DNA from: a virus
Length of the DNA stretch: 64,000 nucleotides
Virus record (IMG/VR): IMGVR_UViG_3300012944_000006
Strand: one strand, 5' to 3'
Positions 18,105-42,733 of the stretch are shown here, in pieces; the stretch's first letter is position 1; every line of letters begins with the position of its first letter. Under the pieces are notes generated by a model. That model had not been told where the DNA came from. It saw nothing but the letters and a program-made list of their open reading frames with translations, and made no database searches. A program made the translations under genes and the position numbers.

Positions 18105-18338
18105 ATGATCCGAGGACGAAAACAACGTTGGTCTGGGTCTGGGTCTGGATCTGGGTCTTGGTCTAGGACTGGGTTTTGGTCTGGATCTGGGTCTTGGTCT
18201 TGGACTGGATCTGGGTCTAGGACTGGATCTAGGACTGGATCTGGATCTGGGTCTTGGTCTTGGTCTAGGACTGGGTCTTGGTCTAGGACTGGATCTAGGA
18301 CTGGATCTAGGACTGGATCTAGGACTGGGTCTTGGTAA
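18105..18338 (+). CDS. Ser/Gly/Trp/Thr/Arg dipeptide-repeat protein, copy 2
   Basis: Same first 11 codons and same length (77 aa) as 16294-16527; gggag RBS 7 nt upstream. Confidence 0.6.
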   Translation: MIRGRKQRWSGSGSGSGSWSRTGFWSGSGSWSWTGSGSRTGSRTGSGSGSWSWSRTGSWSRTGSRTGSRTGSRTGSW

Positions 18339-20767: not shown

Positions 20768-21049
20768 ATGATCATTCGTTTTAAAACTAAATCAGGCTCT
20801 AAGTATCAAATTGATTATGAAGCTCGGGTATGGGAATGTTTCTATGCCGGTGTGAAGTCCAAAATTCGGATTGATACTGGGGTGTTCTTTAACAATCCTA
20901 TTGTTAAGTTGGGCGAACGTGTTGTGATCTTAGGCCCTGCTTTACAAGAGGGTATGTTCGGACGTTTCATTTCAACATCCCCAGTTCAGAGCTTTGAACA
21001 GTTTTATAACGAAAACGAGCTTAAGGAGGCATTGTCAGATGTCGGTTAG
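20768..21049 (+). CDS. hypothetical protein
   Basis: Trimmed to the ATG after the ggagg RBS. Confidence 0.55.
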   Translation: MIIRFKTKSGSKYQIDYEARVWECFYAGVKSKIRIDTGVFFNNPIVKLGERVVILGPALQEGMFGRFISTSPVQSFEQFYNENELKEALSDVG

Positions 21050-22331
21050 TTTAAAAGATGTTCCAGAAAACACTCTGTTTAAGTTCGTTAAGAGTGAGAA
21101 AACCAAAGACGCTTACGAATCATCTATTACTATTTTAGCAAATGTTGATTATTACTGGTATAATTCTACTCCTGGATGTATTGCCAATCCTTATCTTGTG
21201 CAATTAGGTTTTTGTACCTATAGGATGCCTAAAGAAACTTGGGCTGAATTTCAAGTGGAAATCGAGACTGATTCGATTAAACAACTTAATTTAAAGACAA
21301 AGAATTTTTTCCAACTTCGTGCTCTGACAGGTTGGGACCCGGAACTCTTTGTTGTAGATGAGAAGAACAAGATTATTCCAGCCTTTGAGTTCCTTCCTCC
21401 GAAGCCAATGGCATTAAATATTAAACGTTATATGTATCCACAAACCCTCTATTCTGATGGCTTTGCAAGCGAATGGACTTGCGGTGTGCATGATTGCCAC
21501 GGTTGGGGAATTGACACTATTCGAGAAGGTATTAAAAGAACGTTCTATGCTGCTCGTGCCCACAATCCGAAAGCGAACGTTACTCTTCAAAATACTTTCA
21601 TCATCTCTCCGATTCGGATGAAGCGCTACAATGATGAACAAATTCGGCTTGGCTGCAATCCATCGAAGAATGCTTATGGTGATGAACCTATCCAAATTCT
21701 TGATGCTCGGAAGGTTGGCTTCCGAAGCGCCGGCGGACACATACATTTTAGTATTTCTGAATATTGGAAGAAAACAGCAACTCGTGATAATTGGGGTGCT
21801 CTTGCACAAGGAATGGATCTGTTTTTAGGTCTTCCTTGTGTTGCGCTTTTCAGTGGAATTGATAATCCACTTCGTAGAACGCTTTATGGGAGAGCTGGAG
21901 AATATCGCACTCCTCCATATGGTATTGAATACCGTGTGCTTTCAAATGCATGGCTTGGGATGCCTGAGATCACCCATCTTGTGATGAATACAGCTCGATC
22001 CGCTACAAAACTCGGGCGTCTAACCAAGGAAGAGCTTAACGGGCTTATGGCTCCAGAGGAACTTAAAGAAATCATCAATGTCTGCGATGTTCCGAGAGCC
22101 AGGGCTTTTGTGGAAAAGCATTGGAATCTCTTCCTTAACCTATCGGATCTGGGTTCTTTTAATCTTTCAAAGAAACTGTGGATGGATGGTGTTAAACACC
22201 ATTTTCCAAACTATGACACTCAAATTCTTGAAAACTGGTTGATTCCAGAGAGTCCTATACAACTCGATCCTTGGATAGCCCATTCCAACGATTCTAAAAA
22301 AACTTGGGGTCAATTGGCTACAAAACTATGA
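21039..22331 (+). CDS. COOH-NH2 ligase (GS/GCS2-like amidoligase), paralog 1
   Basis: Ordered motifs GWDPELFVV ... SDGFASEW ... SAGGHIHF ... GIEYRVLSNAWL shared with 25216-26724 and 29727-30650; aaggagg RBS. Confidence 0.7.
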   Translation: MSVSLKDVPENTLFKFVKSEKTKDAYESSITILANVDYYWYNSTPGCIANPYLVQLGFCTYRMPKETWAEFQVEIETDSIKQLNLKTKNFFQLRALTGWDPELFVVDEKNKIIPAFEFLPPKPMALNIKRYMYPQTLYSDGFASEWTCGVHDCHGWGIDTIREGIKRTFYAARAHNPKANVTLQNTFIISPIRMKRYNDEQIRLGCNPSKNAYGDEPIQILDARKVGFRSAGGHIHFSISEYWKKTATRDNWGALAQGMDLFLGLPCVALFSGIDNPLRRTLYGRAGEYRTPPYGIEYRVLSNAWLGMPEITHLVMNTARSATKLGRLTKEELNGLMAPEELKEIINVCDVPRARAFVEKHWNLFLNLSDLGSFNLSKKLWMDGVKHHFPNYDTQILENWLIPESPIQLDPWIAHSNDSKKTWGQLATKL

Positions 22332-22594
22332 ACGATTGTTCAGTTTGTCATGAAGGAATATTGCTCAATCCATCTACAGGTAGGGTGTCTGCTTGTACTG
22401 CTTGTGGTGGGATGGGAGAAGTTGATCCCAATGCCATCTGTGCTTGTGGTAGAGCCGCTGTTGGTCGGAAAGATGGATTTGCCATTTGTGGTCGAGCTGA
22501 ATGTTTAGAGAATTTTAAACGAGAGGTAAAAATATCAAGTTTTGGGACTCATTCCCCTGCTTATAACACTTGGCAAGAGTACCAAGGGGATTAA
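22328..22594 (+). CDS. zinc-ribbon protein with DnaJ-type CxxCxGxG motif
   Basis: CSVCHEG ... CTACGGMGE ... CACG ... CGRAEC; ATGA coupling to ligase 1. Confidence 0.55.
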   Translation: MNDCSVCHEGILLNPSTGRVSACTACGGMGEVDPNAICACGRAAVGRKDGFAICGRAECLENFKREVKISSFGTHSPAYNTWQEYQGD

Positions 22595-22894
22595 CGAGGT
22601 CGGTAGGAGGAAGTAACAGAGTGAAACGCCTAGATTCTATTTCCGGTTAGCGCCTGCTCAGGCTAAACAACTTTAGGGTTTCCTAAATTGGACTGGAAAT
22701 AGGTGTCAGGTCGTTACTTGAATATGGTTTTCAGTAGAGCCTCTGGGGGCGGAGCAACTAAGGTAGGTGGATTCGTCCGTCTATAAGTGTGTTCCCCGAT
22801 TCAAACCAAGCTCCTACGGGGCCATATGAGAGTAGTGGAATGACAATCTAGAGGATACGCTTCTGCGATGCTTCCTCCTTAGACAATTTTTGAG
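22595..22894 (+). ncRNA. ~300-nt structured non-coding segment (candidate cis-regulatory or independent RNA)
   Basis: Nested helices 22605-22613/22871-22879, 22630-22636/22845-22851, 22637-22647/22692-22702 plus local hairpins; no ORF. Confidence 0.4.
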
Positions 22895-22900
22895 GTGACT

Positions 22901-23284
22901 ATGGAACAAACTAAAGTCTTCGTCTACGGAACCTTAAAGCAGGGAGAGGTTTCACACCACTTCCTAGAGCATATGAAGGCACGCTTCATTGCGAAAGACA
23001 CCGTTGTTGGTCGGATTGTAACGGTTCTAGGGAGGTATCCCGGTCTCGTTCCTAGTCCTACAGGTCTTGTATCTGGAGAAGCTTATGAGATTCCGGTCAC
23101 TGGATTATTGACCTTGGACATATACGAAGGCACCGATCATGGTCTTTACGAGCGTAAGCAGGTTATGACTACCGGTGGTGAATGTGTGTGGGCATACTTC
23201 GCTAAGAGGGGATTTGAGCCCGGTATTTATGTGGAATCTTCATCCCCGATGACATACTCTTGGGGCCACGGGAGTATGGAATAG
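22901..23284 (+). CDS. gamma-glutamylcyclotransferase / AIG2-GGACT family protein
   Basis: VFVYGTLKQGE ... YPGLVP ... VSGEAYEI ... LDIYEG ... YERKQV, the family signature order. Confidence 0.85.
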   Translation: MEQTKVFVYGTLKQGEVSHHFLEHMKARFIAKDTVVGRIVTVLGRYPGLVPSPTGLVSGEAYEIPVTGLLTLDIYEGTDHGLYERKQVMTTGGECVWAYFAKRGFEPGIYVESSSPMTYSWGHGSME

Positions 23285-23533
23285 GTTTAAGCTTCCTAGC
23301 CACGTAAACGGTCTAGGATGTAAATCCTTCTCTTCGGAGAGGGTCCAAAGACTTAACACAAGTCTTCGGCATAAGGTAACACCTGAAAGCGCCCTCAAAG
23401 GGGGACCAAGTAGGGAGAGCATAGTCAATGTGCCCGGCCAGCACATCCTTCCCAAAAGACTATGCTTAGAGGACACGCGACTCTGTTAGGAGAGTCCTAC
23501 GTAGCTCCTACCCAAGTTTAGAAAAGGAGAAGT
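23285..23533 (+). ncRNA. ~250-nt structured non-coding segment
   Basis: UUCG-capped 7-bp hairpin 23326-23343; hairpin 23349-23365; 9-bp helix 23418-23426/23458-23466 enclosing 23428-23433/23441-23446; hairpin 23479-23496. Confidence 0.4.
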
Positions 23534-23917
23534 ATGGCAGAAAAGAAGCCGTTGATGCAATTGACGTTGGCAGCTCTTAGGAAGAAGTATCCTGAGGGGG
23601 AGTATGGGAATAACTATAGTTGTTACCACAACGATTTTTATCTACAGTCTAGGGGATTTTATCACTGCTGTGGAGCTCTAGAGATTGGGGTGTTTGATGG
23701 CTTTCAAGATGGTGATCCTGAAAAGAATCAAGCCTTTCTTGCTCGTGCCATTAAAGAATTCATGTTTAGTAATAGGGTTAGAACTGTGTTCTGTTCAACC
23801 ATAACTGCCCAAAAAGAAGAAAGGGCAGCTTTAGAGGCCATCGGGTTTGCAGAAGTCACCACAAGTATCAATCCCAAGACCCGTAATCGAATCACATTCT
23901 GGGCTTATTCGGAGTAA
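23534..23917 (+). CDS. hypothetical protein (weak GNAT-like C-terminal resemblance)
   Basis: aaggaga RBS; ...ALEAIGFAEV...NPKTRNRITFW resembles the GNAT C-terminal strand-helix; weak. Confidence 0.5.
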   Translation: MAEKKPLMQLTLAALRKKYPEGEYGNNYSCYHNDFYLQSRGFYHCCGALEIGVFDGFQDGDPEKNQAFLARAIKEFMFSNRVRTVFCSTITAQKEERAALEAIGFAEVTTSINPKTRNRITFWAYSE

Positions 23918-23919
23918 GC

Positions 23920-24438
23920 ATGGCGGAACTTAGAGTTCCAATTCGACTCATCTGGCGGTTATGTTATCCGGCTGGACATCGGTTGAATCCAAATCCGGTT
24001 CTTACAGACGAACAGCGTAAGAATCCTGTAGATGCAATCGTTGTCCAAGCTAGGGTTGTGCCGAGTCGTAATACATCCTTTGAGAAAGGCAATCTCCCAG
24101 AGCATGACTACAAGTATTATCAAGGCAGCTCGATGATTAATAGTCAAGTGGCAACATGCCGTTGGTGTCAAACGGTTGTCTATGGGGAGAAAGCACGACT
24201 AGAACATAAAGCCGGAGGTTGTTTACATTGGATAGATGTGCTTGGAGAATGGATGCGGACGGATGGGTCTTGTGTTGTTTGTGAGACGAAGACTAGCTTC
24301 GCTAAATGGGGCATTCCCTTATGTAGCACGAACTGCATCAATGCGTTTCGATACTTCAGCCCAACGCCTTGGAGAGATGAACAACTAATAGTGAAAAACT
24401 TCGAGAAGGGGCGAAAAGTCGGTCATGTTAAGGTATAG
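23920..24438 (+). CDS. Cys-rich zinc-finger protein
   Basis: CRWC...HKAGGC ... CVVC...CSTNC. Confidence 0.55.
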   Translation: MAELRVPIRLIWRLCYPAGHRLNPNPVLTDEQRKNPVDAIVVQARVVPSRNTSFEKGNLPEHDYKYYQGSSMINSQVATCRWCQTVVYGEKARLEHKAGGCLHWIDVLGEWMRTDGSCVVCETKTSFAKWGIPLCSTNCINAFRYFSPTPWRDEQLIVKNFEKGRKVGHVKV

Positions 24439-25219
24439 CTATCGAACCGCTAGGGCTTTGAATTTTGGGGATAGATACGCTACTAGAACACCGTTTCCAG
24501 GCCGTTGGCCTCTACGTCTGATAATCAGTAAACGTGAAAATCAAGTAGAGACCGGCAAGGATATAACTGTCTATAACGGAAAGCCATCTCGAAATGCTTG
24601 GCGGATTTGGGAGAATTGTATACGAGATCCTGATCGGCATCGAACGGTTTGGTATCGGGGTTGGCTCTATGATCGACACGCAAGATGCGCTGTTTTTAGT
24701 GACCTAGATGGAGATGGTGGCTTTCGTAGAAGCGCATTGTTCTTCCGTTATTACTTCATGCCGGAGGGTTGCAACGACAAGGCGATATTTGAGTCACAAC
24801 CTCTTAGGATTCGAGAAGGGGCGATCTTTGTGAATCCTCGCTTTGAATATCCCAAGGCCCAGTTTCATGCTGGATTAAGGTCCAATATCCGAGGCGGCAA
24901 TAAGGCACGAATGCCGGAGAACATTCAGGAGCTGGGTGAGTATATGTATCCACAATTCCTCAATAACCCCCCCCTACCAGGCCCTAATACCCCTCGTCGT
25001 CCGGGGCAGAGAGTTATAGCAGTACACGCTCCAGAAGAAGAAGCAGAACATACAAGGCTGTTTGGGGTGTTTAATAAAATTCGAACGGGAATAGGTACTC
25101 CTGTTGTCTTTAGAGAACCGCCTATAAGGTTCCCTCGGTGGGTTGTTACGACGGTTGAGCCTCCATTGGGGCCAGAGCAGCCAAATGATCCGTATCAAGA
25201 TGAGGACGGGAACGCATGA
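24425..25219 (+). CDS. hypothetical protein, Pro-rich C-terminus
   Basis: 264-aa ORF; carries an in-frame motif copy (LPGPNTPRRP). Confidence 0.55.
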   Translation: MLRYSYRTARALNFGDRYATRTPFPGRWPLRLIISKRENQVETGKDITVYNGKPSRNAWRIWENCIRDPDRHRTVWYRGWLYDRHARCAVFSDLDGDGGFRRSALFFRYYFMPEGCNDKAIFESQPLRIREGAIFVNPRFEYPKAQFHAGLRSNIRGGNKARMPENIQELGEYMYPQFLNNPPLPGPNTPRRPGQRVIAVHAPEEEAEHTRLFGVFNKIRTGIGTPVVFREPPIRFPRWVVTTVEPPLGPEQPNDPYQDEDGNA

Positions 25220-26724
25220 GTAATCTGTTCTACAAACCGGAATTCCTCAAAGATTATGTCAGCGGTGGACCTAAGCAAGATCGTTGGGCGGAGATCCTTC
25301 CTAAGGATACAAGAGAACTCTGGACAAGTAAGTTCTTGAACTTTAAGAACGATGAATTCAAACCTAATGCTAATCATAGGTTGCTCAACAACTTTATGAT
25401 TGGTTCTGATCCTGAGTTTGTTTTTGTACACGGAGGAGACAGACATAAAACTTCTGCTATAGCAGTAGGTCTCAAAGTAGGGTTGGCTGCTGGAGCTGAT
25501 CAGAATGAACGACTTGGAGAACTGAGACCATATCCTTCTACCTATGTAGCCGAGCATTTGGCTTCCATCCTTGTGACTCTTCGTTGGATGTATCTGGTTA
25601 ATTCGGCATCATCCTCTTTTAATTGGAGAGCTGGAGCTTGGTATGATGCTGATGGTATCGGAGGTCATATTCATTTCGGGCGTAAGCGTCCCAATCGAAT
25701 CGAAGAGATACGTGGTTTGAATGGTTTGGCGTTGATGTTGGCTCGGCTTGGTTTGTTTCCAATGACTGAGTGGCATACTAGAATGGGTGGAGATTCTAGG
25801 GGTCAACTTTATGGGCGCTTTGGGGATATTCGGACTCAGCTTCATGGATATGAATATCGAACGCTACCATCGTGGTTGAATTCTCCAATAATTGCCTATA
25901 TATGTCTGGCAGCCAGCAAACTTGTGATCTTTGATCCAGATGTTACAATTCCCTGGGCGGACATTATTGAGAAAGACGAAAATCCGTTAGTTCGATTGCG
26001 AGGGTTGGCGAAGCTTTACAAGGGGCGGGATGATGACGCAGCAATTCTTTATCACATTTTAGGACAACCTAATCGGTGGACTGGTGATCCTGTGTCTCGT
26101 AGCTTTAAGGCAGCTTGGGGTATTCCAACAGCTGAGATGCTGGCGGTTACTGGATTTGAACATTACATTCTGCCTGATTCTATCGAACCTACAAAAACGG
26201 AAGTTGTTGAAATTGAAGACCATCTTCTTCAAGAGCGTCCTTTGACATTCTCACAACCAGTTCCTAATTTTGTATACACAATTCCGCCAACCTATACTTG
26301 GTTGCCGAGTGTGATTCAACCCGCTCGTAGGGCTGGTTTTGGGGACTTGATTCATAATGTTGTGACGGGTAAAGGTGTTCCAAATCTCAGGATTGAGTAT
26401 CTCGCAGATCAACAGAAAGTTGCTGTAAGTCCTAGAATGTGGGTTTATTGGAATATTAAGGAAAGAGAATACTTTCAAAACGAGATTGAAGGTAAGATTG
26501 AGAATGCTTGGGATGGATACGTCGTTGGTTTTCCTAGAACTTGGTGTATTCCTCCTGGGATTAAGAAGGCCAGACATTTCCTGTTTGATTCTGGTCTCCT
26601 ACCCGCATGGCGGGTAAAGGAAGTTCAGGAAGATTCTTTGTTAGCGTGGATCCATCTCCATTCCGATAAGAAAACAACTAAAAAGATTATTAAGACGTAC
26701 CATAAAAGCGGGAGAAATCTATAA
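25216..26724 (+). CDS. COOH-NH2 ligase (amidoligase), paralog 2
   Basis: IGSDPEFVFV ... IGGHIHFGRK ... GYEYRTLPSWL; ATGA coupling upstream. Confidence 0.7.
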   Translation: MSNLFYKPEFLKDYVSGGPKQDRWAEILPKDTRELWTSKFLNFKNDEFKPNANHRLLNNFMIGSDPEFVFVHGGDRHKTSAIAVGLKVGLAAGADQNERLGELRPYPSTYVAEHLASILVTLRWMYLVNSASSSFNWRAGAWYDADGIGGHIHFGRKRPNRIEEIRGLNGLALMLARLGLFPMTEWHTRMGGDSRGQLYGRFGDIRTQLHGYEYRTLPSWLNSPIIAYICLAASKLVIFDPDVTIPWADIIEKDENPLVRLRGLAKLYKGRDDDAAILYHILGQPNRWTGDPVSRSFKAAWGIPTAEMLAVTGFEHYILPDSIEPTKTEVVEIEDHLLQERPLTFSQPVPNFVYTIPPTYTWLPSVIQPARRAGFGDLIHNVVTGKGVPNLRIEYLADQQKVAVSPRMWVYWNIKEREYFQNEIEGKIENAWDGYVVGFPRTWCIPPGIKKARHFLFDSGLLPAWRVKEVQEDSLLAWIHLHSDKKTTKKIIKTYHKSGRNL

Positions 26725-27743
26725 TGTGTGGAATCGCAGGCATTAAAAGAATGGGCAATGAGCCAATAACTGTAGAAGAAATCTGTATTCTTTTATGCTC
26801 GTTGGAGCATCGTGGGAACCATGCGACAGGAATTGCTGTTGAAAACAATGGAGATATACACGTCTGCAAGAAAGATGTCCCCGCTTGGTCTTTCACGGCC
26901 AGTGATGAGTTCAAGGGATTTGTAGGGGAACATCTGAACGACGGCACGAATACGGTCCTATTGCATACCCGAGCTGCTACAAAGGGTGCGCCATACAAGA
27001 ATGAGAACAATCATCCGATGTATGCTGGAGAAACGGCTGTTGTTCACAATGGAGGTATCCGAAACGATGACTTTATATTCCGTAATCTATCCTTAAAGCG
27101 GAGTTGTGAGACGGACTCGGACATCATTCGAGCCATCCTTGATAAAGAAGGTCTTACTCGCAAGGGTGTTCGAGAATTGGAGAAGCTAGATGGTTCAATG
27201 GCAATAGCAGCCGTTCATCCAGATGCTCCTGAATATGTTCTCTTGGCTCGAAGCGGTAATCCTCTGATCATTGGAACCACAAACTTTAAGATCTATTGGG
27301 CTTCAGAACAACAAGCAATTCAAAAGGCAGTTCGTCCTTGGACTAAGAGATTTGGGCTTTGGTCTAGAGCTTCCAGCAGTGGTGATATCGTATACACTGC
27401 TATGCCAGATAATACAGCCTATCTGATGGGACCAGAGGGTCTGGATTGGAAGCAAGAAGTTAAGATCTGTGCTCAATTCCACGCTCCGATGTATCGAATG
27501 CACGAGAGTTATTTCACAAAGACTTCCAACTGGCGAGCAGAACGTCGGAGGCAGGCAGGTAAGACAGGAGAAGAACCTAAGAATCTCAGTCGGTATGCTG
27601 AGGTTGATAAGGCGGCATGGTGCGCTCTTTGCCCTTCTTGCAAAAAAGGCGTCACTAAAACCAATGTAATAAAGCCTTGGCGGAAATACAAATGTTCTAA
27701 TTGCAAAGCATCGCTTGCAGCACTTGATCAAAAACCAAACTAA
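26724..27743 (+). CDS. class-II (Ntn) glutamine amidotransferase with C-terminal zinc ribbon
   Basis: MCGIAGI (Cys2 nucleophile), LEHRGNHATGIA, HTRAATKG..NNHP, VHNGGIRN; CALCPSC...CSNC tail; TAATG coupling. Confidence 0.85.
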   Translation: MCGIAGIKRMGNEPITVEEICILLCSLEHRGNHATGIAVENNGDIHVCKKDVPAWSFTASDEFKGFVGEHLNDGTNTVLLHTRAATKGAPYKNENNHPMYAGETAVVHNGGIRNDDFIFRNLSLKRSCETDSDIIRAILDKEGLTRKGVRELEKLDGSMAIAAVHPDAPEYVLLARSGNPLIIGTTNFKIYWASEQQAIQKAVRPWTKRFGLWSRASSSGDIVYTAMPDNTAYLMGPEGLDWKQEVKICAQFHAPMYRMHESYFTKTSNWRAERRRQAGKTGEEPKNLSRYAEVDKAAWCALCPSCKKGVTKTNVIKPWRKYKCSNCKASLAALDQKPN

Positions 27744-27753
27744 AGGAGCAAAC

Positions 27754-28500
27754 ATGCGGTTCATTATTGCTAGGGGGGCTGGTCCTACCGGAACTCTTTT
27801 GCAAGAGCTTGTTCTTGCACAGATGAAAGAAGATAAAGTCCGAGACCGAGATTGTATCATTTGTTATGGTGCAGGTAGATTGGAGACACAAACTCCTACA
27901 TTGAACGCTCATTGTTCTGATATGACCAAGTTAGAACAAGCGGTTCGTTTGCAAGAACAGATGCCTGAAGAATCTTTGGCTGTATTTCGGCCAGATCAAC
28001 TAGAGGGGGTTAGATGGCCTGGTGGGGTTTTCTTGGGACGGAAGACACAGCATACTCAGGGCAAGGATATTCGAATTATCCTAGAGCCCTGGCAAGTGAC
28101 TGCGGCGGTACAAGCAGGGACGACTTTCTTCACAAGGTATGTGTCATCAGAACGAGAGTTCCGAGTTTGGGTTTATCGGAACAGGCATCTGGGAACCTAT
28201 GAGAAGGCTCTCACACGTCCAGCGGAGTTTAAAACTATCGGTCGAAATTATCACAATGGTTTCTCATTCCAGCGTATCGAGTCGAATAATGTGCCGGAAG
28301 CTCTCAAGGTAATCGCAAAGGACGCAATTCGATATTTGGATTTGGATTTTGGGGCTGTCGATGTTCTAGGAACTGCTGAGGGATACAAGGTTCTGGAGGT
28401 GAACTCAGCTCCGGGTGTACAAGATGATCGTAGAGCTGTGATTCAGGGGTTGGCCCATCGCATCGTTAGGTGGATGGCGAATGACTGTCCGGGGAGGTAG
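27754..28500 (+). CDS. ATP-grasp ligase (RimK-like)
   Basis: GRKTQHTQGKDI, SEREFRVWVY, DLDFGAVDVLG..GYKVLEVNSAPG; aaggag RBS. Confidence 0.75.
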   Translation: MRFIIARGAGPTGTLLQELVLAQMKEDKVRDRDCIICYGAGRLETQTPTLNAHCSDMTKLEQAVRLQEQMPEESLAVFRPDQLEGVRWPGGVFLGRKTQHTQGKDIRIILEPWQVTAAVQAGTTFFTRYVSSEREFRVWVYRNRHLGTYEKALTRPAEFKTIGRNYHNGFSFQRIESNNVPEALKVIAKDAIRYLDLDFGAVDVLGTAEGYKVLEVNSAPGVQDDRRAVIQGLAHRIVRWMANDCPGR

Positions 28501-28504
28501 ATAA

Positions 28505-28843
28505 GTGGCAGTAAGAAAATACTACGCCTATTGTGATAATCGTAATTGGTATTATGGGGCAGCAAGTTTCTACCGCTTGAAAGATAAGGTAGATGCTTAC
28601 ATAGCGGAAAGGCCAGGACCCGCATATGCGACAACTCGCGCACGATATAATACGTTGGTTGAAACGTGTACCAAGCTCTCATGGCGCAAAAAACTGCCGC
28701 GATATTGGGCACTCTACAAGAACTACGTTGGAACTGACACACGGGGATTTCTCAAAGAATATCCCATACGAAACAAAAAAGAGTTCAAAGCCTCTGAGTA
28801 TCGTGCCCTCATCTCCGTCGGAAAGTATGACTCACGTGCCTAA
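28505..28843 (+). CDS. hypothetical Tyr/Arg-rich protein
   Basis: GTG start after ggaggt RBS. Confidence 0.5.
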   Translation: MAVRKYYAYCDNRNWYYGAASFYRLKDKVDAYIAERPGPAYATTRARYNTLVETCTKLSWRKKLPRYWALYKNYVGTDTRGFLKEYPIRNKKEFKASEYRALISVGKYDSRA

Positions 28844-29201
28844 CACAGAGTATAATCACAATACGGGGCGACTGCTTATTACTACTATAGATTTTATAAA
28901 GGATAAAGTCCTTTGTTCTCGACATGGTTGGCAACAGGGATGGTGGTTTGAATACAGACCAGGCAACCGATCTTTAACATGTCCTAGTTGTCTGGAGAAT
29001 GAGATTAAGACTACATTCATTCCTGCTACGGAGATCCTAGAACCAGAAGAATCTAAGGATGCGGTTGAAGCATGTGCTTATTGTCCGGCTAAGCACGATA
29101 CTAAATGCATCGAGTGTGGTCAGTACATCTGTAAGGATCACTCCAGATGGAAGGGGATGCTGTGTCTAGATTGTGAAGTGTCAAGAGAAGCCCTCCTTTG
29201 A
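28827..29201 (+). CDS. Cys-rich (B-box-like) zinc-finger protein
   Basis: Trimmed to the ATG at 28827; CPSC...CAYC...CIECGQYIC..H...CLDC; stop overlaps the sigma-factor start (TTGA). Confidence 0.5.
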   Translation: MTHVPNTEYNHNTGRLLITTIDFIKDKVLCSRHGWQQGWWFEYRPGNRSLTCPSCLENEIKTTFIPATEILEPEESKDAVEACAYCPAKHDTKCIECGQYICKDHSRWKGMLCLDCEVSREALL

Positions 29202-29743
29202 ACACCAGGCTTAAGTCCCCCTCAAGGGAGAACTATGAGAACTGGCTTTATGATCAGTATAGGAAAGCCACGGAAGATGAACGTCCAGAGATCTTTCGTA
29301 GGCTCTTTAAGGTTCTAACTGTTCACGCATCTCGGGTTATCTATATGATTCTTCGGTCTTTACAAGAGGATATGGCTGAAGAGTTAGCTCAGGATGCGTT
29401 ATTAGAGATCGACAGCTTTCAAGGTGACAGTCTGTTCTCTACGTGGTTCCATGCTAGAGTGAAATATCATTGCTACAATGTTCGTCGTTCGTTGCGGTCT
29501 AGAAACACAACTTACTTATCTCAAACAAAGGACACCAGCGCGATTGATGCCGTTGAGACAAGGGTTATATTGCAAGAGTTAATGAGGGATTGGTCTGACA
29601 CAGAGCGTAAGGTTGTAGACTACGTTCTTGAGGGATACACAGTTCGAGAAATTGCGGACATCTTAGGCATTTCGGCAATGACAGTATCAAGAACTTGGCA
29701 ACGAATCTTGGATAGGATAAGAGAACATGGCACTAGTAAATGA
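29198..29743 (+). CDS. sigma-70 family (ECF-like) sigma factor
   Basis: Region-2-like FRRLFKVL...EELAQDALLEI and region-4 HTH EGYTVREIADILGISAMTVSRTWQRILDRI; only in-frame start is TTG 29198. Confidence 0.75.
   Translation: MNTRLKSPSRENYENWLYDQYRKATEDERPEIFRRLFKVLTVHASRVIYMILRSLQEDMAEELAQDALLEIDSFQGDSLFSTWFHARVKYHCYNVRRSLRSRNTTYLSQTKDTSAIDAVETRVILQELMRDWSDTERKVVDYVLEGYTVREIADILGISAMTVSRTWQRILDRIREHGTSK
29203..29223 (+). promoter_or_regulatory. dispersed motif copy inside the first codons of the sigma-factor ORF
   Basis: caccaggcttaagtccccctc then aagggagaact ATG (out of frame). Confidence 0.4.
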
Positions 29744-30650
29744 CTTTTTGATTGGGGCTGATCCAGAATTTGTATTGTTGAACCCGCCGCATGTAGTGAA
29801 TACCTATGCGAACAATAGGTATCGTGCTATATCTGTGGATTATGGTTATGATCACGGGGGCTATGTTATAGAACCACATCCTGAACCAGCTCTTTCAGTG
29901 CGTCAAGTTGTTAAGAACATTAAGAAGTGTCTGGTTACTGTTGGTAAAGAAAATACTATTGGACATAAGTGGAGGGCCGGGGCCTACATAACAACTCCAG
30001 AACGGGGAATCTCTCTTGGTGGTCATGTCCATGTAGATAGATTAAATCCCACCACAGATCAACTTCGAGCTTATGATACCTTCACAGGCAATTTAGAACG
30101 TCTCGACATCCTCCCCCGTAATGAATCTATTTATCGTAGAGGTCATTCTGCATATGGTAATTGGGGCGATGTCCGATGTGAACATGGGCGACATGAATAT
30201 CGGTCAATGTGCTCGTGGTTGTTTAGTTCTAAAGCTGCAACGTTGTCCATGACAGGAATTAAGTTGGCGGTTGTGGCTCCAGAAACAGTAGAACGGTTGG
30301 ATTCAATAGAGGGGCTTAAGGCCTGGTATGAGAAATTCTATGGGAAGGATGATGATGTAGATTGGATTTTGAACAAAGGATACTTTGATAAAAGTCTGGA
30401 AGCAGTGCCGGATACTGATGTAAAAGAGCCTTGGGGAATTGAAAAGGCTTTGGCCTTGGAGATTAAAAAAAAGCCAGAGCAAGAAAGGTCCCCTTTAAAT
30501 GACATGCAACAGGTGTATCTTGAAGGTCTTCGTCAAAGGAATTTGGCAGAAGAAGCAGTTGTAGCCCGAGCACAAGAATTGGCTAACGCTCGAAGATTGC
30601 GAGAAGAAAGAGTGTATTTAAATGCCGGGATTGATTGGGGGAATTTTTAA
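29727..30650 (+). CDS. COOH-NH2 ligase (amidoligase), paralog 3 (minimal)
   Basis: IGADPEFVLL ... LGGHVHVDR ... RHEYRSMCSWL. Confidence 0.7.
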   Translation: MALVNDFLIGADPEFVLLNPPHVVNTYANNRYRAISVDYGYDHGGYVIEPHPEPALSVRQVVKNIKKCLVTVGKENTIGHKWRAGAYITTPERGISLGGHVHVDRLNPTTDQLRAYDTFTGNLERLDILPRNESIYRRGHSAYGNWGDVRCEHGRHEYRSMCSWLFSSKAATLSMTGIKLAVVAPETVERLDSIEGLKAWYEKFYGKDDDVDWILNKGYFDKSLEAVPDTDVKEPWGIEKALALEIKKKPEQERSPLNDMQQVYLEGLRQRNLAEEAVVARAQELANARRLREERVYLNAGIDWGNF

Positions 30651-39868: not shown

Positions 39869-40027
39869 ATGAGGGAGAAGATGACAGGACCTCTTGATAA
39901 AGTATGCCCTTTTTGCAATGCGGCAATTGGGGCAAAGTGCCTAGAGAAAGTTAAGGATGGATCGAGATGGATTGAATACTTCCATCCGGAGAGGGTAGTA
40001 GCAGATGTCAGGTCCACTGAAAGATAA
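39869..40027 (+). CDS. 52-aa zinc-ribbon peptide (not in ORF track)
   Basis: ggggaggga RBS; CPFC...KC; preferred over the antisense ORF 39802-40017. Confidence 0.4.
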   Translation: MREKMTGPLDKVCPFCNAAIGAKCLEKVKDGSRWIEYFHPERVVADVRSTER

Positions 40028-40637
40028 CCGACTCAAGATCGGTGTTGATGTTGATGATGTACTTGCTGATTTTATCGGAACCTTCCGATTGATTTGTCAA
40101 GAGGTTACGGGAAGAGAACTTCCTGAACGTCCTAATACTTGGATGTGGGATAACTGGAATCTTAAGCCTGAGGAATTAGAGGCTGGATGGAAGAAGGTTC
40201 AACAGACTTATAACTTCCATACAACACTAAAGTCTTGTGCTGATCTAGAAGGCTTTGATTTCTATGAGTTCAGTCAGAAGCATAGGTTGTTTTATATCAC
40301 TACTAGATATCCAAACCACGGAGATCCTGTGGAAATTCAAACGGCTCAATGGCTTCATTGGTATTTCAACCAAGAGTTTCCCACAGTCATTGTGACGCCT
40401 AACAAGGGAGCAGTTGCCAAAGCCCTGAACCTAGATGTCTTCATTGATGATCGGGCTAAGAATCTATTGGATGTCTACAACGATACGATCCTTGCTGGTC
40501 AACCTATTCGTTTGTTTCTTAGAGACCGTGAACACAATCGTAATGTAGATAGCGAACTTCCACCAGCTTATGCCTATACCCGTGTAGAATCATTTAAGGA
40601 GTTTGCAGATAGTGTCGAAACAAGTGTCGCTGTTTGA
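40005..40637 (+). CDS. HAD-family 5'(3')-deoxyribonucleotidase-like protein
   Basis: KIGVDVDDVLADF (DxDxV HAD motif I in the NT5C-like context); distal FIDDRAKN. Confidence 0.65.
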   Translation: MSGPLKDNRLKIGVDVDDVLADFIGTFRLICQEVTGRELPERPNTWMWDNWNLKPEELEAGWKKVQQTYNFHTTLKSCADLEGFDFYEFSQKHRLFYITTRYPNHGDPVEIQTAQWLHWYFNQEFPTVIVTPNKGAVAKALNLDVFIDDRAKNLLDVYNDTILAGQPIRLFLRDREHNRNVDSELPPAYAYTRVESFKEFADSVETSVAV

Positions 40638-41106
40638 ACCGGAGGTACGTTACCACGAGGGAATTAAGCCCGGTGAAAAAATTCCTGTAACTGACGAAGA
40701 AATGATTAAAATTATAAACGGCACCTTGATCTTTGAGCCTGTTGAATCAAAACCCAAAGATGAAGGTCGTAAATTAGATGATGGTAAGATCCCTTTAGAG
40801 CTACTTCCTTTCCCGGCATTACGGGAGGTAGCAAAGGTTCTTTCCTTCGGAAGGAAGAAGTATGACTCTTGGAACTGGTCAAAAGGCATGGCTTGGAGCC
40901 GCCTTATTGGTGCTTGTAAACGGCATCTTGGGTATTTTGAGTGCGGAGTTGATATCGATAATGAAAGTAAGTTACTTCATATTGCTCATTTGGTTTGTTG
41001 CGGTATGTTTCTGCTCACGTATCAACTCTGCAATCTTGGGGTGGATGACAGGCACAAAGGGTTCAAAGAGTTCGTCGAACAAGCAGAAGGAACCTATAAG
41101 CCGTGA
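40603..41106 (+). CDS. dATP/dGTP pyrophosphohydrolase-like protein (start uncertain)
   Basis: DDGKIPLELLPFPALREVAKVLSFGRKKYDSWNWSKG...CKRH...DNESKLLHIAH resembles the phage dNTP diphosphohydrolase N-terminal domain as I recall it. Confidence 0.5.
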   Translation: MQIVSKQVSLFEPEVRYHEGIKPGEKIPVTDEEMIKIINGTLIFEPVESKPKDEGRKLDDGKIPLELLPFPALREVAKVLSFGRKKYDSWNWSKGMAWSRLIGACKRHLGYFECGVDIDNESKLLHIAHLVCCGMFLLTYQLCNLGVDDRHKGFKEFVEQAEGTYKP

Positions 41107-41818: not shown

Positions 41819-41837
41819 AGGGGATTAATGCCTGGTA
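41815..41837 (-). promoter_or_regulatory. dispersed motif copy, reverse, contains the integrase ATG 41828
   Basis: atagaggggattaatgcctggta. Confidence 0.45.
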
Positions 41838-42733
41838 CATTGTATGACCTACAAGCGCGGTATGAAAATTATATCAGGCTAACTGCGTCTAGGGGGACGG
41901 CTGTGAGATATGCCAAAGCCCTAGACCAGTTCTTTCGTAGGTTCAAAGACTATAAAGATCCTGATCAATTCACCCGGATTGACATTGAGGACTACAGACT
42001 TCAGCGATTAAAAGAAGGAACCAGTCCTACGACGGTGAACTATGAGGTTCAAGTAGTCCGGGCCTTCTGGAACTATCTGATGAACATGGATGAGGTTAAA
42101 TGGAATCCAGCATCAAAGGTTCGTAGGCTAAAACAAACAGAGCCAGAGAGGAAGTCTCTGACTCTAGAGGAGCAGGAAAGGCTATATAAATATGTTAACA
42201 ATCGTACTGTGTATGATCGCTTGCTTGTTGGTCTGTCTCTTAGCACCGGACTCAGGGCGGAAACCCTAGCCAATCTTCACACAGATCATATCGACTTTGA
42301 GAACTCTCAGCTTAACATACCGGCTGCAATAATGAAAGCAGGACGTAATCATGTTGTCCCTCTTCGACAGACTGAAGTTGTTCTTCTTCGTGGGTTGGAT
42401 AATGGTCGGGTGTTTGCTGGTTATGCACAAACTGCCAACACCCTTTCAGCAAAGCTTTCTGCTATGTTTCTTAGGTGCGGTCTTAGTTACCGTGGTTTGC
42501 GAACTGCTCGTCGTACTTTTGCGACTACTCTTCTTCGTGCTGGTAATGATCTTCGGTTGGTCCAAGATTTACTCGCACATAAGAACATCTCCACTACTTC
42601 AAAGTATCTTACTCCTGCTGATTCCCGAACTGTACGGGCAGCTATAGAAGGATTACCAAAAGCAAAAGGGGTAGCCGAAGCCACCCCCATGTCACCAGGC
42701 ATTAACCCCCTCGCTCCGAGTACGGAGGATTAA
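41828..42733 (+). CDS. int: tyrosine recombinase / integrase
   Basis: SLSTGLRAETL (Arg), HVVPL, LRTARRTFATTLL..., LLAHKNISTTSKYL (HxxR...Y catalytic layout). Confidence 0.9.
   Translation: MPGTLYDLQARYENYIRLTASRGTAVRYAKALDQFFRRFKDYKDPDQFTRIDIEDYRLQRLKEGTSPTTVNYEVQVVRAFWNYLMNMDEVKWNPASKVRRLKQTEPERKSLTLEEQERLYKYVNNRTVYDRLLVGLSLSTGLRAETLANLHTDHIDFENSQLNIPAAIMKAGRNHVVPLRQTEVVLLRGLDNGRVFAGYAQTANTLSAKLSAMFLRCGLSYRGLRTARRTFATTLLRAGNDLRLVQDLLAHKNISTTSKYLTPADSRTVRAAIEGLPKAKGVAEATPMSPGINPLAPSTED
42693..42712 (+). promoter_or_regulatory. dispersed motif copy in the last integrase codons
   Basis: caccaggcattaaccccctc; inverted repeat of 41815-41837 (18 of 19 core positions). Confidence 0.45.

Follow-up and report, generated by a model that had tools for sequence, protein, structure and literature searches.

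A divergent variant of the phiEco32-type amidoligase cassette, accompanied by a conserved structured RNA, in a lineage of uncultured phages

The IMG/VR record IMGVR_UViG_3300012944_000006 is a near-complete ~64-kb genome of an uncultured phage, and the same sequence also exists as a metagenomic contig of 63-65 kb. The 64,000-nucleotide stretch analyzed here, which we call the window, contains an island of amide-ligase genes between positions 20,994 and 30,650. An original prediction, made from the DNA letters without database searches, had proposed three paralogous ligases of the glutamine synthetase/γ-glutamylcysteine ligase (GS/GCS) type, interleaved with a glutamine amidotransferase, an ATP-grasp protein, a γ-glutamylcyclotransferase, zinc-ribbon proteins, and a sigma factor. 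All the open reading frames (ORFs) that it named exist on the plus strand, where it had placed them, and profile searches returned the expected families: three COOH-NH2 ligases of family PF14395 (LIG1, LIG2, and LIG3), a class-II GATase (GAT), a RimK-like ATP-grasp (GRASP), a GGACT protein, and an ECF-like sigma factor. The PHROGs naming of the island ORFs agrees with Pfam. Coordinates and family assignments are collected in Table 1.

PF14395 is described as “Phage phiEco32-like COOH.NH2 ligase-type 2.” All three ligases carry the ordered motifs GxDPE, GGHxH, and EYR on which the original prediction was founded, and in each ortholog group these motifs, the last within a longer YG...R...EYR...SxWL pattern, either do not vary or show conservation of at least 90%. 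In LIG1, residues G113-D115-P116-E117, G247-G248-H249-H251, and E312-Y313-R314 are at least 90% conserved across 29 orthologs. The corresponding residues D65-P66-E67, G149-G150-H151-x-H153, and E213-Y214-R215 are invariant in LIG2, and G10-D12-P13-E14, G98-G99-H100-H102, and E157-Y158-R159 of LIG3 are kept in 23 orthologs. The putative roles of these residues were deduced rather than assigned by superposition. The three proteins are old paralogs, each with its own orthologs, and not recent duplicates. By tblastn, distant homologs of LIG1 were found in 300 cultured-phage records, mostly from Pseudomonas and Escherichia phages, and no match to LIG2 or LIG3 was found in 50,697 phage records. LIG2 has more than 250 metagenomic homologs of ~500 amino acids.

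The predicted GS/GCS ligase fold was assessed on LIG2, the one ligase of the three covered by this test. An AlphaFold2 model built from 34 homologs (pLDDT 89, pTM 0.90) gave as its best Foldseek matches in the PDB the ligases YbdK (1r8g), bifunctional GshF (3ln7), the depupylase Dop (4b0r), γ-GCS, GS, and GmaS, in agreement with the proposed fold, with TM-scores of only 0.3-0.4 and identities of ~10-13%. The best viral matches were annotated COOH.NH2 ligases or amidoligases of phages CW02, RIO-1, and tf. The structural alignment covers the N-terminal half of LIG2 only; the C-terminal ~250 amino acids are conserved, and their fold matched nothing known in Foldseek. A PDB sequence search with the LIG2 profile returned nothing significant. 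Together, family, fold, and motifs lead us to predict carboxylate-amine ligase activity for LIG1, LIG2, and LIG3.

To place the island in a wider context, we collected 31 related phage loci and classed their ORFs with jackhmmer; counts out of 32 below refer to these loci plus the window. IMG/VR relatives were reached by a profile scan, whereas a single-sequence IMG/VR scan with LIG2 gave no match. The island is syntenic in all 31 loci. Because their LIG2 proteins are only ~30-50% identical, this arrangement is not due to chance. The recurrent order is LIG1 - ZnA - [GGACT] - [GNAT-like, 0-3 copies] - ZnB - (variable ORF) - LIG2 - GAT - ATP-grasp - (variable ORFs) - sigma - LIG3 - U91 - PD-(D/E)XK - U73 - AAA_24, where ZnA and ZnB are small zinc proteins. 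Occupancy is 29 of 32 for both ZnA and ZnB, 30 for GAT, 31 for the ATP-grasp, 26 for sigma, and 17 for GGACT, the last in variable positions. ZnA directly follows LIG1 in 29 of the 32 loci. GAT lies directly after LIG2 or within about 150 nt of it in nearly all loci, with extra ORFs between the two in L004, L008, and L020, and in loci that have LIG3 the sigma gene immediately precedes it, with L023 and L020 as exceptions. The conserved core can be written as LIG1-ZnA-RNA ... ZnB-x-LIG2-GAT-ATP-grasp.

A subclade of six loci (L025, L027-L030, and L032) defines the minimal core. It has LIG1-ZnA-(GGACT)-ZnB-LIG2-GAT-ATP-grasp, and LIG3 was not found next to it. Because of this subclade, LIG3 may not belong to the same pathway as the other two ligases, and the three successive ligation steps that had been suggested are not borne out.

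In the window, most neighboring genes are start/stop coupled, as had been noted. ATGA overlaps join LIG1 to ZnA and U264 to LIG2, a TAATG overlap joins LIG2 to GAT, and overlaps of 4-17 nt occur at ZnB/U264, U112/ZnC, ZnC/sigma, and sigma/LIG3. Two noncoding gaps, of 306 and 249 nt, flank the GGACT gene and form the exceptions.

Table 1. Positions of the island features in the window and of copies of the structured RNA in related loci
Feature	Position	Strand	Description
LIG1, COOH-NH2 ligase	21039-22331	+	430 aa; alternative TTG start 20994 gives 445 aa; PF14395 E 2.7e-9; phrog_3815 E 1.4e-35
ZnA, small zinc protein	22328-22594	+	88 aa; two DnaJ-like CxxCxGxG motifs and CxCGRP...CGxxxC; start overlaps LIG1 stop (ATGA)
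Structured RNA	22602-22883	+	~280 nt, in the 306-nt gap after ZnA; no Rfam family
GGACT/AIG2 γ-glutamyl(amine) cyclotransferase	22901-23284 (alternative start 22895)	+	127 aa; PF06094 E 1.7e-19; phrog_2520
Second noncoding gap, GGACT to GNAT-like ORF	23285-23533	+	249 nt; minimum free energy z-score -2.6
U127, GNAT-like family member	23534-23917	+	127 aa; window copy lacks canonical motif A
ZnB, two-site zinc protein (C2HC + C4)	23920-24438	+	GNLxxxEYRFWxG motif; 29/32 loci, always upstream of LIG2
U264	24425-25219	+	Slot directly upstream of LIG2; position conserved, sequence variable
LIG2, COOH-NH2 ligase	25216-26724	+	502 aa; PF14395 E 4.4e-20
GAT, class-II (Ntn) glutamine amidotransferase	26724-27743	+	GATase_6 E 1.6e-15 (GATase_6/7); N-terminus MCGIAG
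GRASP, RimK-like ATP-grasp	27754-28500 (alternative start 27715)	+	248 aa; PF08443 E 4.4e-7; phrog_2599 E 2.2e-23; 31/32 loci
U112	28505-28843	+	Lineage-specific ORF; no family match
ZnC, Cys-rich	28827-29201	+	Lineage-specific ORF; no family match
ECF-like phage sigma factor	29198-29743	+	Sigma70_r4 E 3.1e-7; Sigma70_ECF E 4.6e-7; r2 E 8.6e-4
LIG3, COOH-NH2 ligase	29727-30650	+	307 aa; PF14395 E 2.9e-20; start overlaps sigma gene by 17 nt
RNA copies elsewhere	L002:7208-7477, L009:6273-6575, L011:7014-7290, L026:7579-7859, L035:1223-1493, L012:5793-6110, L003:7837-8186, L049:1826-2104, L055:1046-1324, and others		Length ~280-420 nt

The amidotransferase carries the N-terminal MCGI, HTR at 81, HNGG at 108, and TDS at 130, and has a C-terminal extension of ~130 amino acids that ends in a zinc ribbon. 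The Cys nucleophile and the HTR, HNG, and TDS motifs of the glutamine site are thus kept; HNG is present in all 30 orthologs and H[TS]R in 23 of the 30. The nearest NCBIfam model of the amidotransferase is the GlmS N-domain (E 1.7e-26), compared with just 1.7e-5 for EgtC, so that glutaminases of the GlmS/PurF type are much the better match. The ATP-grasp protein matches the NCBIfam models for the RimK family (6.8e-8), MptN (2.2e-6), and CofF (7.6e-6), all far under the equivalog cut-offs (32.2 bits against 143.4 for TIGR00768 and 24.9 against 331 for PRK10446). Its predicted membership is therefore at the level of the superfamily only.

Four Cys-rich zinc-ribbon proteins had been proposed as partners of the enzymes. 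The Cys-rich character of these proteins stands, and no Pfam match at threshold supports the zinc-ribbon assignment. ZnA and ZnB are each conserved in 29 of the 32 loci, and ZnC has no detectable homolog in the other loci. No Pfam match was obtained for ZnA, whose C-terminal tail is not conserved, varying in length and last residue among 29 orthologs. The invariant residues of ZnB are C80, R81, C83, H96, C118, C121, C135, and C139. ZnB matched nothing in Pfam, PHROG, or PADLOC and nothing by tblastn among the 50,697 phage records, and hhalign found no similarity between ZnB and phiEco32 gp85.

The remaining ORFs are more variable. The window copy of U127 has no Pfam match itself, and its jackhmmer family has 41 members in 24 loci, with 9 of 34 members matching Acetyltransf_1 (best E 4.9e-7). 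No homolog of U264 was detected among the other loci, most of which hold an unrelated ORF of 140-350 amino acids in the same slot. Likewise, U112 and ZnC have no homologs among the other loci, where unrelated ORFs occupy their slot. None of the island ORFs of unknown family matched NCBIfam or PADLOC. The gap between GGACT and U127 may also be structured, judging from its folding score; its sole match in the other loci is a weak nhmmer hit (L009:8789-8884, E 4e-4).

Neither the GNAT-like family nor the structured RNA inside the island had appeared in the original prediction. The RNA lies in the 306-nt gap, which contains no ORF longer than 31 amino acids on either strand, and the region folds better than shuffled sequence (minimum free energy z-score -3.4). 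A long closing helix, P1 (about 22605-22879), bears a conserved GUAAC/CGAUGC loop, which we take to resemble the UAA/GAN motif. P1 also has a pseudo-symmetric internal loop, with ACACGC conserved on both strands, and the helix encloses covarying P2 hairpins and a conserved P3 helix in which GAGUAAAGYCUCUG is paired with ACAUGCUGCUAC. Because G-U pairs are frequent, we assign the structure to the plus strand, that is, the mRNA sense.

Conservation and covariation support this structure. Even where the phage proteins share only ~45% identity, the DNA sequence of the RNA is conserved and its location unchanged. A consensus from eight sequences has 40 pairs with 94% of cells paired, and 23 of the 40 pairs show compensatory change; none of 500 shuffled controls was as good, and slid partners gave only 2-7 compensatory pairs. 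With 12 full-length sequences, 39 of 52 pairs were compensatory, and P1 covaries at 17 of its 18 pairs across 16 loci, including the distant L004, L008, L010, L014, L016, L017, and L025. Except in L004, no more than a few nucleotides separate the start of the RNA from the stop codon of ZnA, and its 3' end falls ~20-25 nt short of the next start codon regardless of which gene follows.

The distribution of the RNA was surveyed with a motif-plus-duplex script and a 19-nt pattern. Iterated sequence-only nhmmer missed the distant loci, whose RNA members were found only by the script, and the script did not trace the RNA in phiEco32 or the remaining distant loci. A metagenome scan with the 19-nt pattern returned 36 matches, five of them true members, and all four members long enough to judge (full-length) sit in a LIG1-ZnA-RNA context. 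Rfam 15 gave no match at the gathering threshold in the window and seven loci. A search of targeted regions at E ≤ 5 gave one spurious minus-strand small-RNA match (23493-23519, E 0.54), which lies outside the RNA. The RNA is previously undescribed and is the freshest lead that the island offers. It is probably a cis-regulatory or protein-binding element of the cassette. We also entertain, as a doubtful possibility, a coupling of the island to an RNA of a new structured class. This RNA might work like a riboswitch leader, sensing a metabolite of the pathway and thereby controlling the cistrons downstream, or it might be a binding partner, scaffold, or even acceptor of the zinc proteins and ligases. 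If true, this would be a ribonucleoprotein-assisted amide-ligase system with no described counterpart.

The island had been put forward as an undescribed system. Comparison with cultured phages shows that it is not: the island is a divergent variant of the phiEco32/LUZ24/PA11/RIO-1-type amidoligase cassette, which has been under discussion since 2009 (PMC5498523, PMC3890496, PMC10580990). The phiEco32 block encodes gp77 (GGACT), gp80 (ATP-grasp), gp83 (GAT-II), gp84 (Amidoligase_2), and gp86 (PF14395). LIG1 is the island ligase nearest to gp86 (phmmer 9e-20), and GAT and GRASP match gp83 (4.3e-12) and gp80 (1.1e-10), respectively. Thus, four of the five enzyme families of phiEco32 gp77-gp88 (GGCT, ATP-grasp, GAT-II, and COOH-NH2 ligase) are present in the island. 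Both cassettes also occupy the same early/replication-arm location in a podovirus-type genome. They differ in that phiEco32 has a PF12224 Amidoligase_2, whereas the island has no PF12224 match and LIG2 holds the slot upstream of GAT. In hhalign, the LIG2 profile showed no similarity to gp84 and only a 65-column core match to gp86. Beyond the phiEco32-type cassette, the lineage adds a third ligase, ZnA, ZnB, the GNAT-like genes, and the structured RNA, and its fixed LIG2-GATase-ATP-grasp triad is new.

Further counterparts are found in PA11/TC6, RIO-1/PSA-HP1, LUZ24/PaP3/tf, and CW02. Duhaime et al. list the cassette in RIO-1, phiEco32, 7-11, PA11, tf, MR299-2, LUZ24, PaP3, and CW02 under the name “peptidoglycan modification cassette,” with blocking of superinfection as its supposed role (PMC5498523). 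Its gene order recurs in UFV-P2, a LUZ24-like phage (PMC3890496), and in PSA-HP1 a homologous cassette is transcribed immediately upon infection (PMC7082346). According to the papers that cite it, the prediction of the cassette goes back to Iyer et al. 2009 (PMC10580990, PMC11318856, PMC11706807), so that, as far as these citing papers convey it, the original prediction was right about the amidoligase survey by Iyer, Aravind, and colleagues. The literature searched, in which Iyer et al. 2009 and Hardies et al. 2013 are represented by the papers citing them, reports no substrate, product, or phenotype for the cassette, which fits the earlier statement that no product had been defined experimentally.

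Transcription-takeover genes are embedded in both cassettes. In phiEco32, gp79 (L006, 52601-52849) lies inside the cassette and displaces sigma70 (PMC12276001); in the window, the sigma gene overlaps LIG3. This may be a coincidence of gene order or a functional link.

The chemistry of the individual families is well established. GS/GCS-type ligases use ATP to convert a carboxylate, in the characterized members the γ-carboxyl of Glu, to an acyl-phosphate that is then joined to an amine. Glutamine is the source from which GlmS-type GAT-II domains release ammonia, ATP-grasps of the RimK family extend a terminal carboxylate with Glu, and GGACT converts γ-glutamyl-amines to 5-oxoproline and the amine. 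The island proteins have no transmembrane, signal, or hydrophobic export segments, from which we infer soluble, cytoplasmic enzymes.

Based on these properties, the reading that we favor, at a probability of roughly 0.55, is a cytoplasmic early pathway that builds, amidates, and trims a γ-glutamyl or peptide-like adduct. Each of the three ligases would turn a carboxylate, typically the γ-carboxyl of Glu, into an acyl-phosphate and join it to an amine. GAT would most likely hydrolyze glutamine and hand the ammonia to the carboxylate activated by LIG2, a glutamine-dependent amidation resembling that of MurT/GatD or AsnB. The RimK-like ATP-grasp would add an amino acid, probably Glu, to a terminal carboxylate, and GGACT would remove γ-glutamyl-amine units or recycle them as 5-oxoproline. 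Overall, these steps would leave a short, amidated γ-glutamyl or peptide-like adduct on an acceptor. Small molecules, precursors of the cell wall, proteins, and nucleic acids are all candidates for this acceptor; a small molecule is the one we rate highest, although it too is rather doubtful.

The evidence for this pathway comprises the protein families, the fold of LIG2, the conserved catalytic residues, synteny in 31 loci, and the same enzyme set in phiEco32. Further support comes from the TAATG overlap of LIG2 and GAT, the position of GAT after LIG2 in most loci, and the early expression in PSA-HP1 (PMC7082346). The LIG1-like genes of 300 cultured phages, the lack of membrane and signal segments, the location between early and replication genes, the GlmS-like scores of GAT, and the structured RNA also count in its favor. 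Several points weigh on the other side. The literature searched offers neither substrate nor product nor phenotype for the cassette in any phage, and each chemical step is deduced at the superfamily level, the RimK and GlmS scores being far under the equivalog cut-offs. GAT-II domains can also be γ-glutamyl amidases, as in EgtC, which is compatible with the sequence. Conserved gene order in an early region can reflect common descent and not one pathway, GGACT was detected in just 17 of the 32 loci, and LIG3 is missing beside the core in six. A 740-residue protein, P0065, that looked like a LIG2-GAT fusion was rejected: its gene model is spliced in eukaryote style, and the contig does not translate to the query. 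As an artefact of such gene calling, it gives no fusion support. It derives from a phage contig (L009, CBFDSD010000095.1) in the Sphagnum jensenii assembly GCA_965612425.1, which was annotated with spliced models.

Several known systems resemble parts of the island. With GCS2/YbdK, γ-GCS, GS, GmaS, and PafA/Dop, the ligases share a common fold, as seen in the LIG2 model, and the ordered Glu / His-x-His / Glu-x-Arg layout; for GCS2/YbdK-type ligases and LIG2, however, TM-scores are just 0.3-0.4, and there is no sequence-level PDB match. For LIG2 and GAT, an analogy in logic is offered by MurT/GatD and the AsnB-like LtsA, which amidate a peptidoglycan carboxylate: the carboxylate is activated by a ligase at the expense of ATP, and the ammonia comes from a glutaminase partner (PMC3267633). 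MurT has a Mur-ligase fold and GatD is a class-I GATase, whereas the island pairs a GS/GCS-fold ligase with a class-II GATase, and the adjacency of the two genes suggests that LIG2 and GAT may be coupled.

In ergothioneine synthesis (EgtA/EgtC) and butirosin synthesis (BtrJ/BtrG), the γ-glutamyl group is a transient handle. It is added by a GCS-type or ATP-grasp ligase and later removed by the GAT-II-fold amidase EgtC or the γ-glutamyl cyclotransferase BtrG. The island differs from these systems in that its GAT is far nearer to GlmS than to EgtC and in that it has no carrier protein or other pathway enzymes. As in LysW/LysX, a small zinc-finger protein accompanies a RimK-family ATP-grasp/ligase. 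ZnA, whose C-terminus ...WQEYQGD resembles EDWGE, was considered as a LysW-like carrier and rejected because the tails are not conserved in 29 orthologs; unlike LysW, it has no conserved acidic C-terminus and is coupled to LIG1, not to the ATP-grasp. No Pup-like tag protein with a conserved C-terminal Gln/Glu was found among the conserved families, and ORFs shorter than 45 amino acids were searched only in the gaps of the window.

We weighed four other explanations against an adduct-building pathway. The island may not encode one pathway at all, the three ligases being separate in function and the cluster held together by inherited early-region order. We consider this rather unlikely, although three tight sub-clusters (LIG1+ZnA+RNA, LIG2+GAT+ATP-grasp, and sigma+LIG3) do recur with unrelated variable ORFs between them, LIG3 lies away from the core in six loci, GGACT moves or goes undetected, and of the three ligases only LIG1 has relatives in cultured phages. 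However, the same families co-occur in the very distant phages phiEco32, LUZ24, RIO-1, and CW02, whose genomes are otherwise different (PMC5498523), and we therefore argue for functional coupling of at least the ligase, GAT, ATP-grasp, and GGCT. In a second explanation, the enzymes would rebuild or amidate the stem peptide (γ-D-Glu, meso-diaminopimelate (mDAP)) of cytoplasmic murein precursors, alter the cell surface, and so block superinfection. This is the reading found in the literature, where several papers name Iyer et al. 2009 and Hardies et al. 2013 as its origin (PMC5498523, PMC10580990, PMC11318856). The enzymes are cytoplasmic, and early expression (PMC7082346) would suit exclusion. 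Yet in Pfam and NCBIfam searches the island lacked domains of the Mur-ligase, transpeptidase, D-amino-acid, or UDP/lipid-binding kinds, and a wall change inside one lytic cycle leaves little time for exclusion. The chemistry has precedents, as MurT/GatD amidates iso-Glu, AsnB-like LtsA amidates mDAP, and ATP-grasps add D-Asp or D-Ala. Similar pairs of amidoligase and GATase, however, are reported in viruses whose predicted hosts are murein-less archaea (PMC11706807). We regard the proposal as unlikely.

Also unlikely, in our estimate, is a modification of proteins, in which Glu or peptide tails (RimK-like) or γ-glutamyl-lysine isopeptides (PafA/Dop-like) would be placed on proteins of the host or the phage (RNA polymerase/sigma and translation factors are examples), with GGACT clearing the released γ-glutamyl-amines. 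Dop is among the best structural matches of the LIG2 model, and the ATP-grasp is nearest to RimK-family enzymes, which extend protein or cofactor tails. Also in favor of protein targets, the phage sigma gene lies within the island, where it overlaps LIG3, gp79 lies inside the phiEco32 cassette (PMC12276001), and phage ATP-grasp enzymes were proposed by Burroughs et al. to act on proteins (PMC4431377). GGACT, however, acts on free γ-glutamyl-amines, not on proteins, and no small protein of the Pup or LysW kind, with a conserved Glu/Gln at its C-terminus or an acidic tail, was found; ZnA varies in its tail, and the C-termini of U73, U91, and GAT are not conserved. Least probable, and improbable in our view, is a modification of nucleic acids, in which phage DNA bases or RNA, possibly the island RNA, would receive an amino-acid or amide group and evade host nucleases. 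The island adjoins replication genes, its RNA is strictly linked to LIG1-ZnA, and the window encodes an NT5C-like 5'-deoxynucleotidase (40005-40637, plus strand, PF06941 E 1.4e-12) adjoining a dATP/dGTP-diphosphohydrolase-like protein (40603-41106, plus strand, PF18909 E 3.4e-30). This pair could deplete the canonical deoxynucleotide pool, and such enzymes accompany base replacement in some phages. Against this, searches of the window found no hydroxymethylase/ThyA-like, DpdA/TGT-like, base-kinase, or glycosylase-like protein, and no nucleic-acid-binding domain was detected on the ligases.

The genomic setting of the island is that of the early/middle arm, where we place it because it lies between small early ORFs and replication genes. 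It begins ~3 kb past a strand switch, preceded by a run of small ORFs, and its end directly abuts PD-(D/E)XK, AAA_24, and PolA, with primase further downstream. The major capsid, portal, and large terminase genes are on the minus strand at 1-9.5 kb of the window; the plus strand carries, at 34-43 kb, a family-A DNA polymerase, primase, metallophosphoesterase, and tyrosine recombinase. Where the early arm starts, close to the strand switch, positions 18130-18336 hold a tandem array of ~17 copies of a 12-nt unit (GGTCTGGGTCTG), which may serve as an origin, as iterons, or in regulation. L009, L012, and L019 have similar arrays upstream, and the ORFs that span the array of the window are low-complexity artefacts. 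A scan for sigma-70 promoters and terminators gave counts no higher than chance. Where the replication and structural arms converge, a tyrosine-recombinase/integrase-like gene (41828-42733, plus strand, phrog_1 E 2.4e-44) hints at a temperate lifestyle. It is followed by a structural block of ~21 kb (42730-63729, minus strand) that includes an ORF of 1699 amino acids. Eight large ORFs tested in this block had no PHROG match at E ≤ 1e-5, so the tail/injection module of the lineage is very divergent.

A near-DNA search of the island among cultured phages found no match. The searches for a host gave little guidance: a scan of genome collections gave just short contigs of metagenome-assembled genomes (MAGs) and no prophage copy in 185,579 reference genomes. 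Fragments of the lineage (L035, L036, and L037) are binned in MAGs named Victivallales, Nitrososphaeria (SPRUCE peat site), and Nanohaloarchaea, which is probably mis-binning. The identity of tRNAs near the island was not consistent among relatives. The environments of the lineage fragments point to peat, soil, or freshwater.

Hundreds of cultured phages carry the amidoligase cassette, among them phages of Pseudomonas and E. coli used in therapy, as do many phages from the sea and from soil, yet the literature searched gives no product for it after ~17 years. The lineage described here separates a minimal core (LIG1-ZnA, ZnB, and LIG2-GAT-ATP-grasp) from dispensable parts and shows that the slot upstream of the GATase can hold a different ligase paralog. 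The structured RNA is a possible handle for finding the ligand or partners of the pathway. If the product proves to be a modification of the cell wall, of proteins, or of nucleic acids, it would represent a new mechanism of phage takeover or exclusion.

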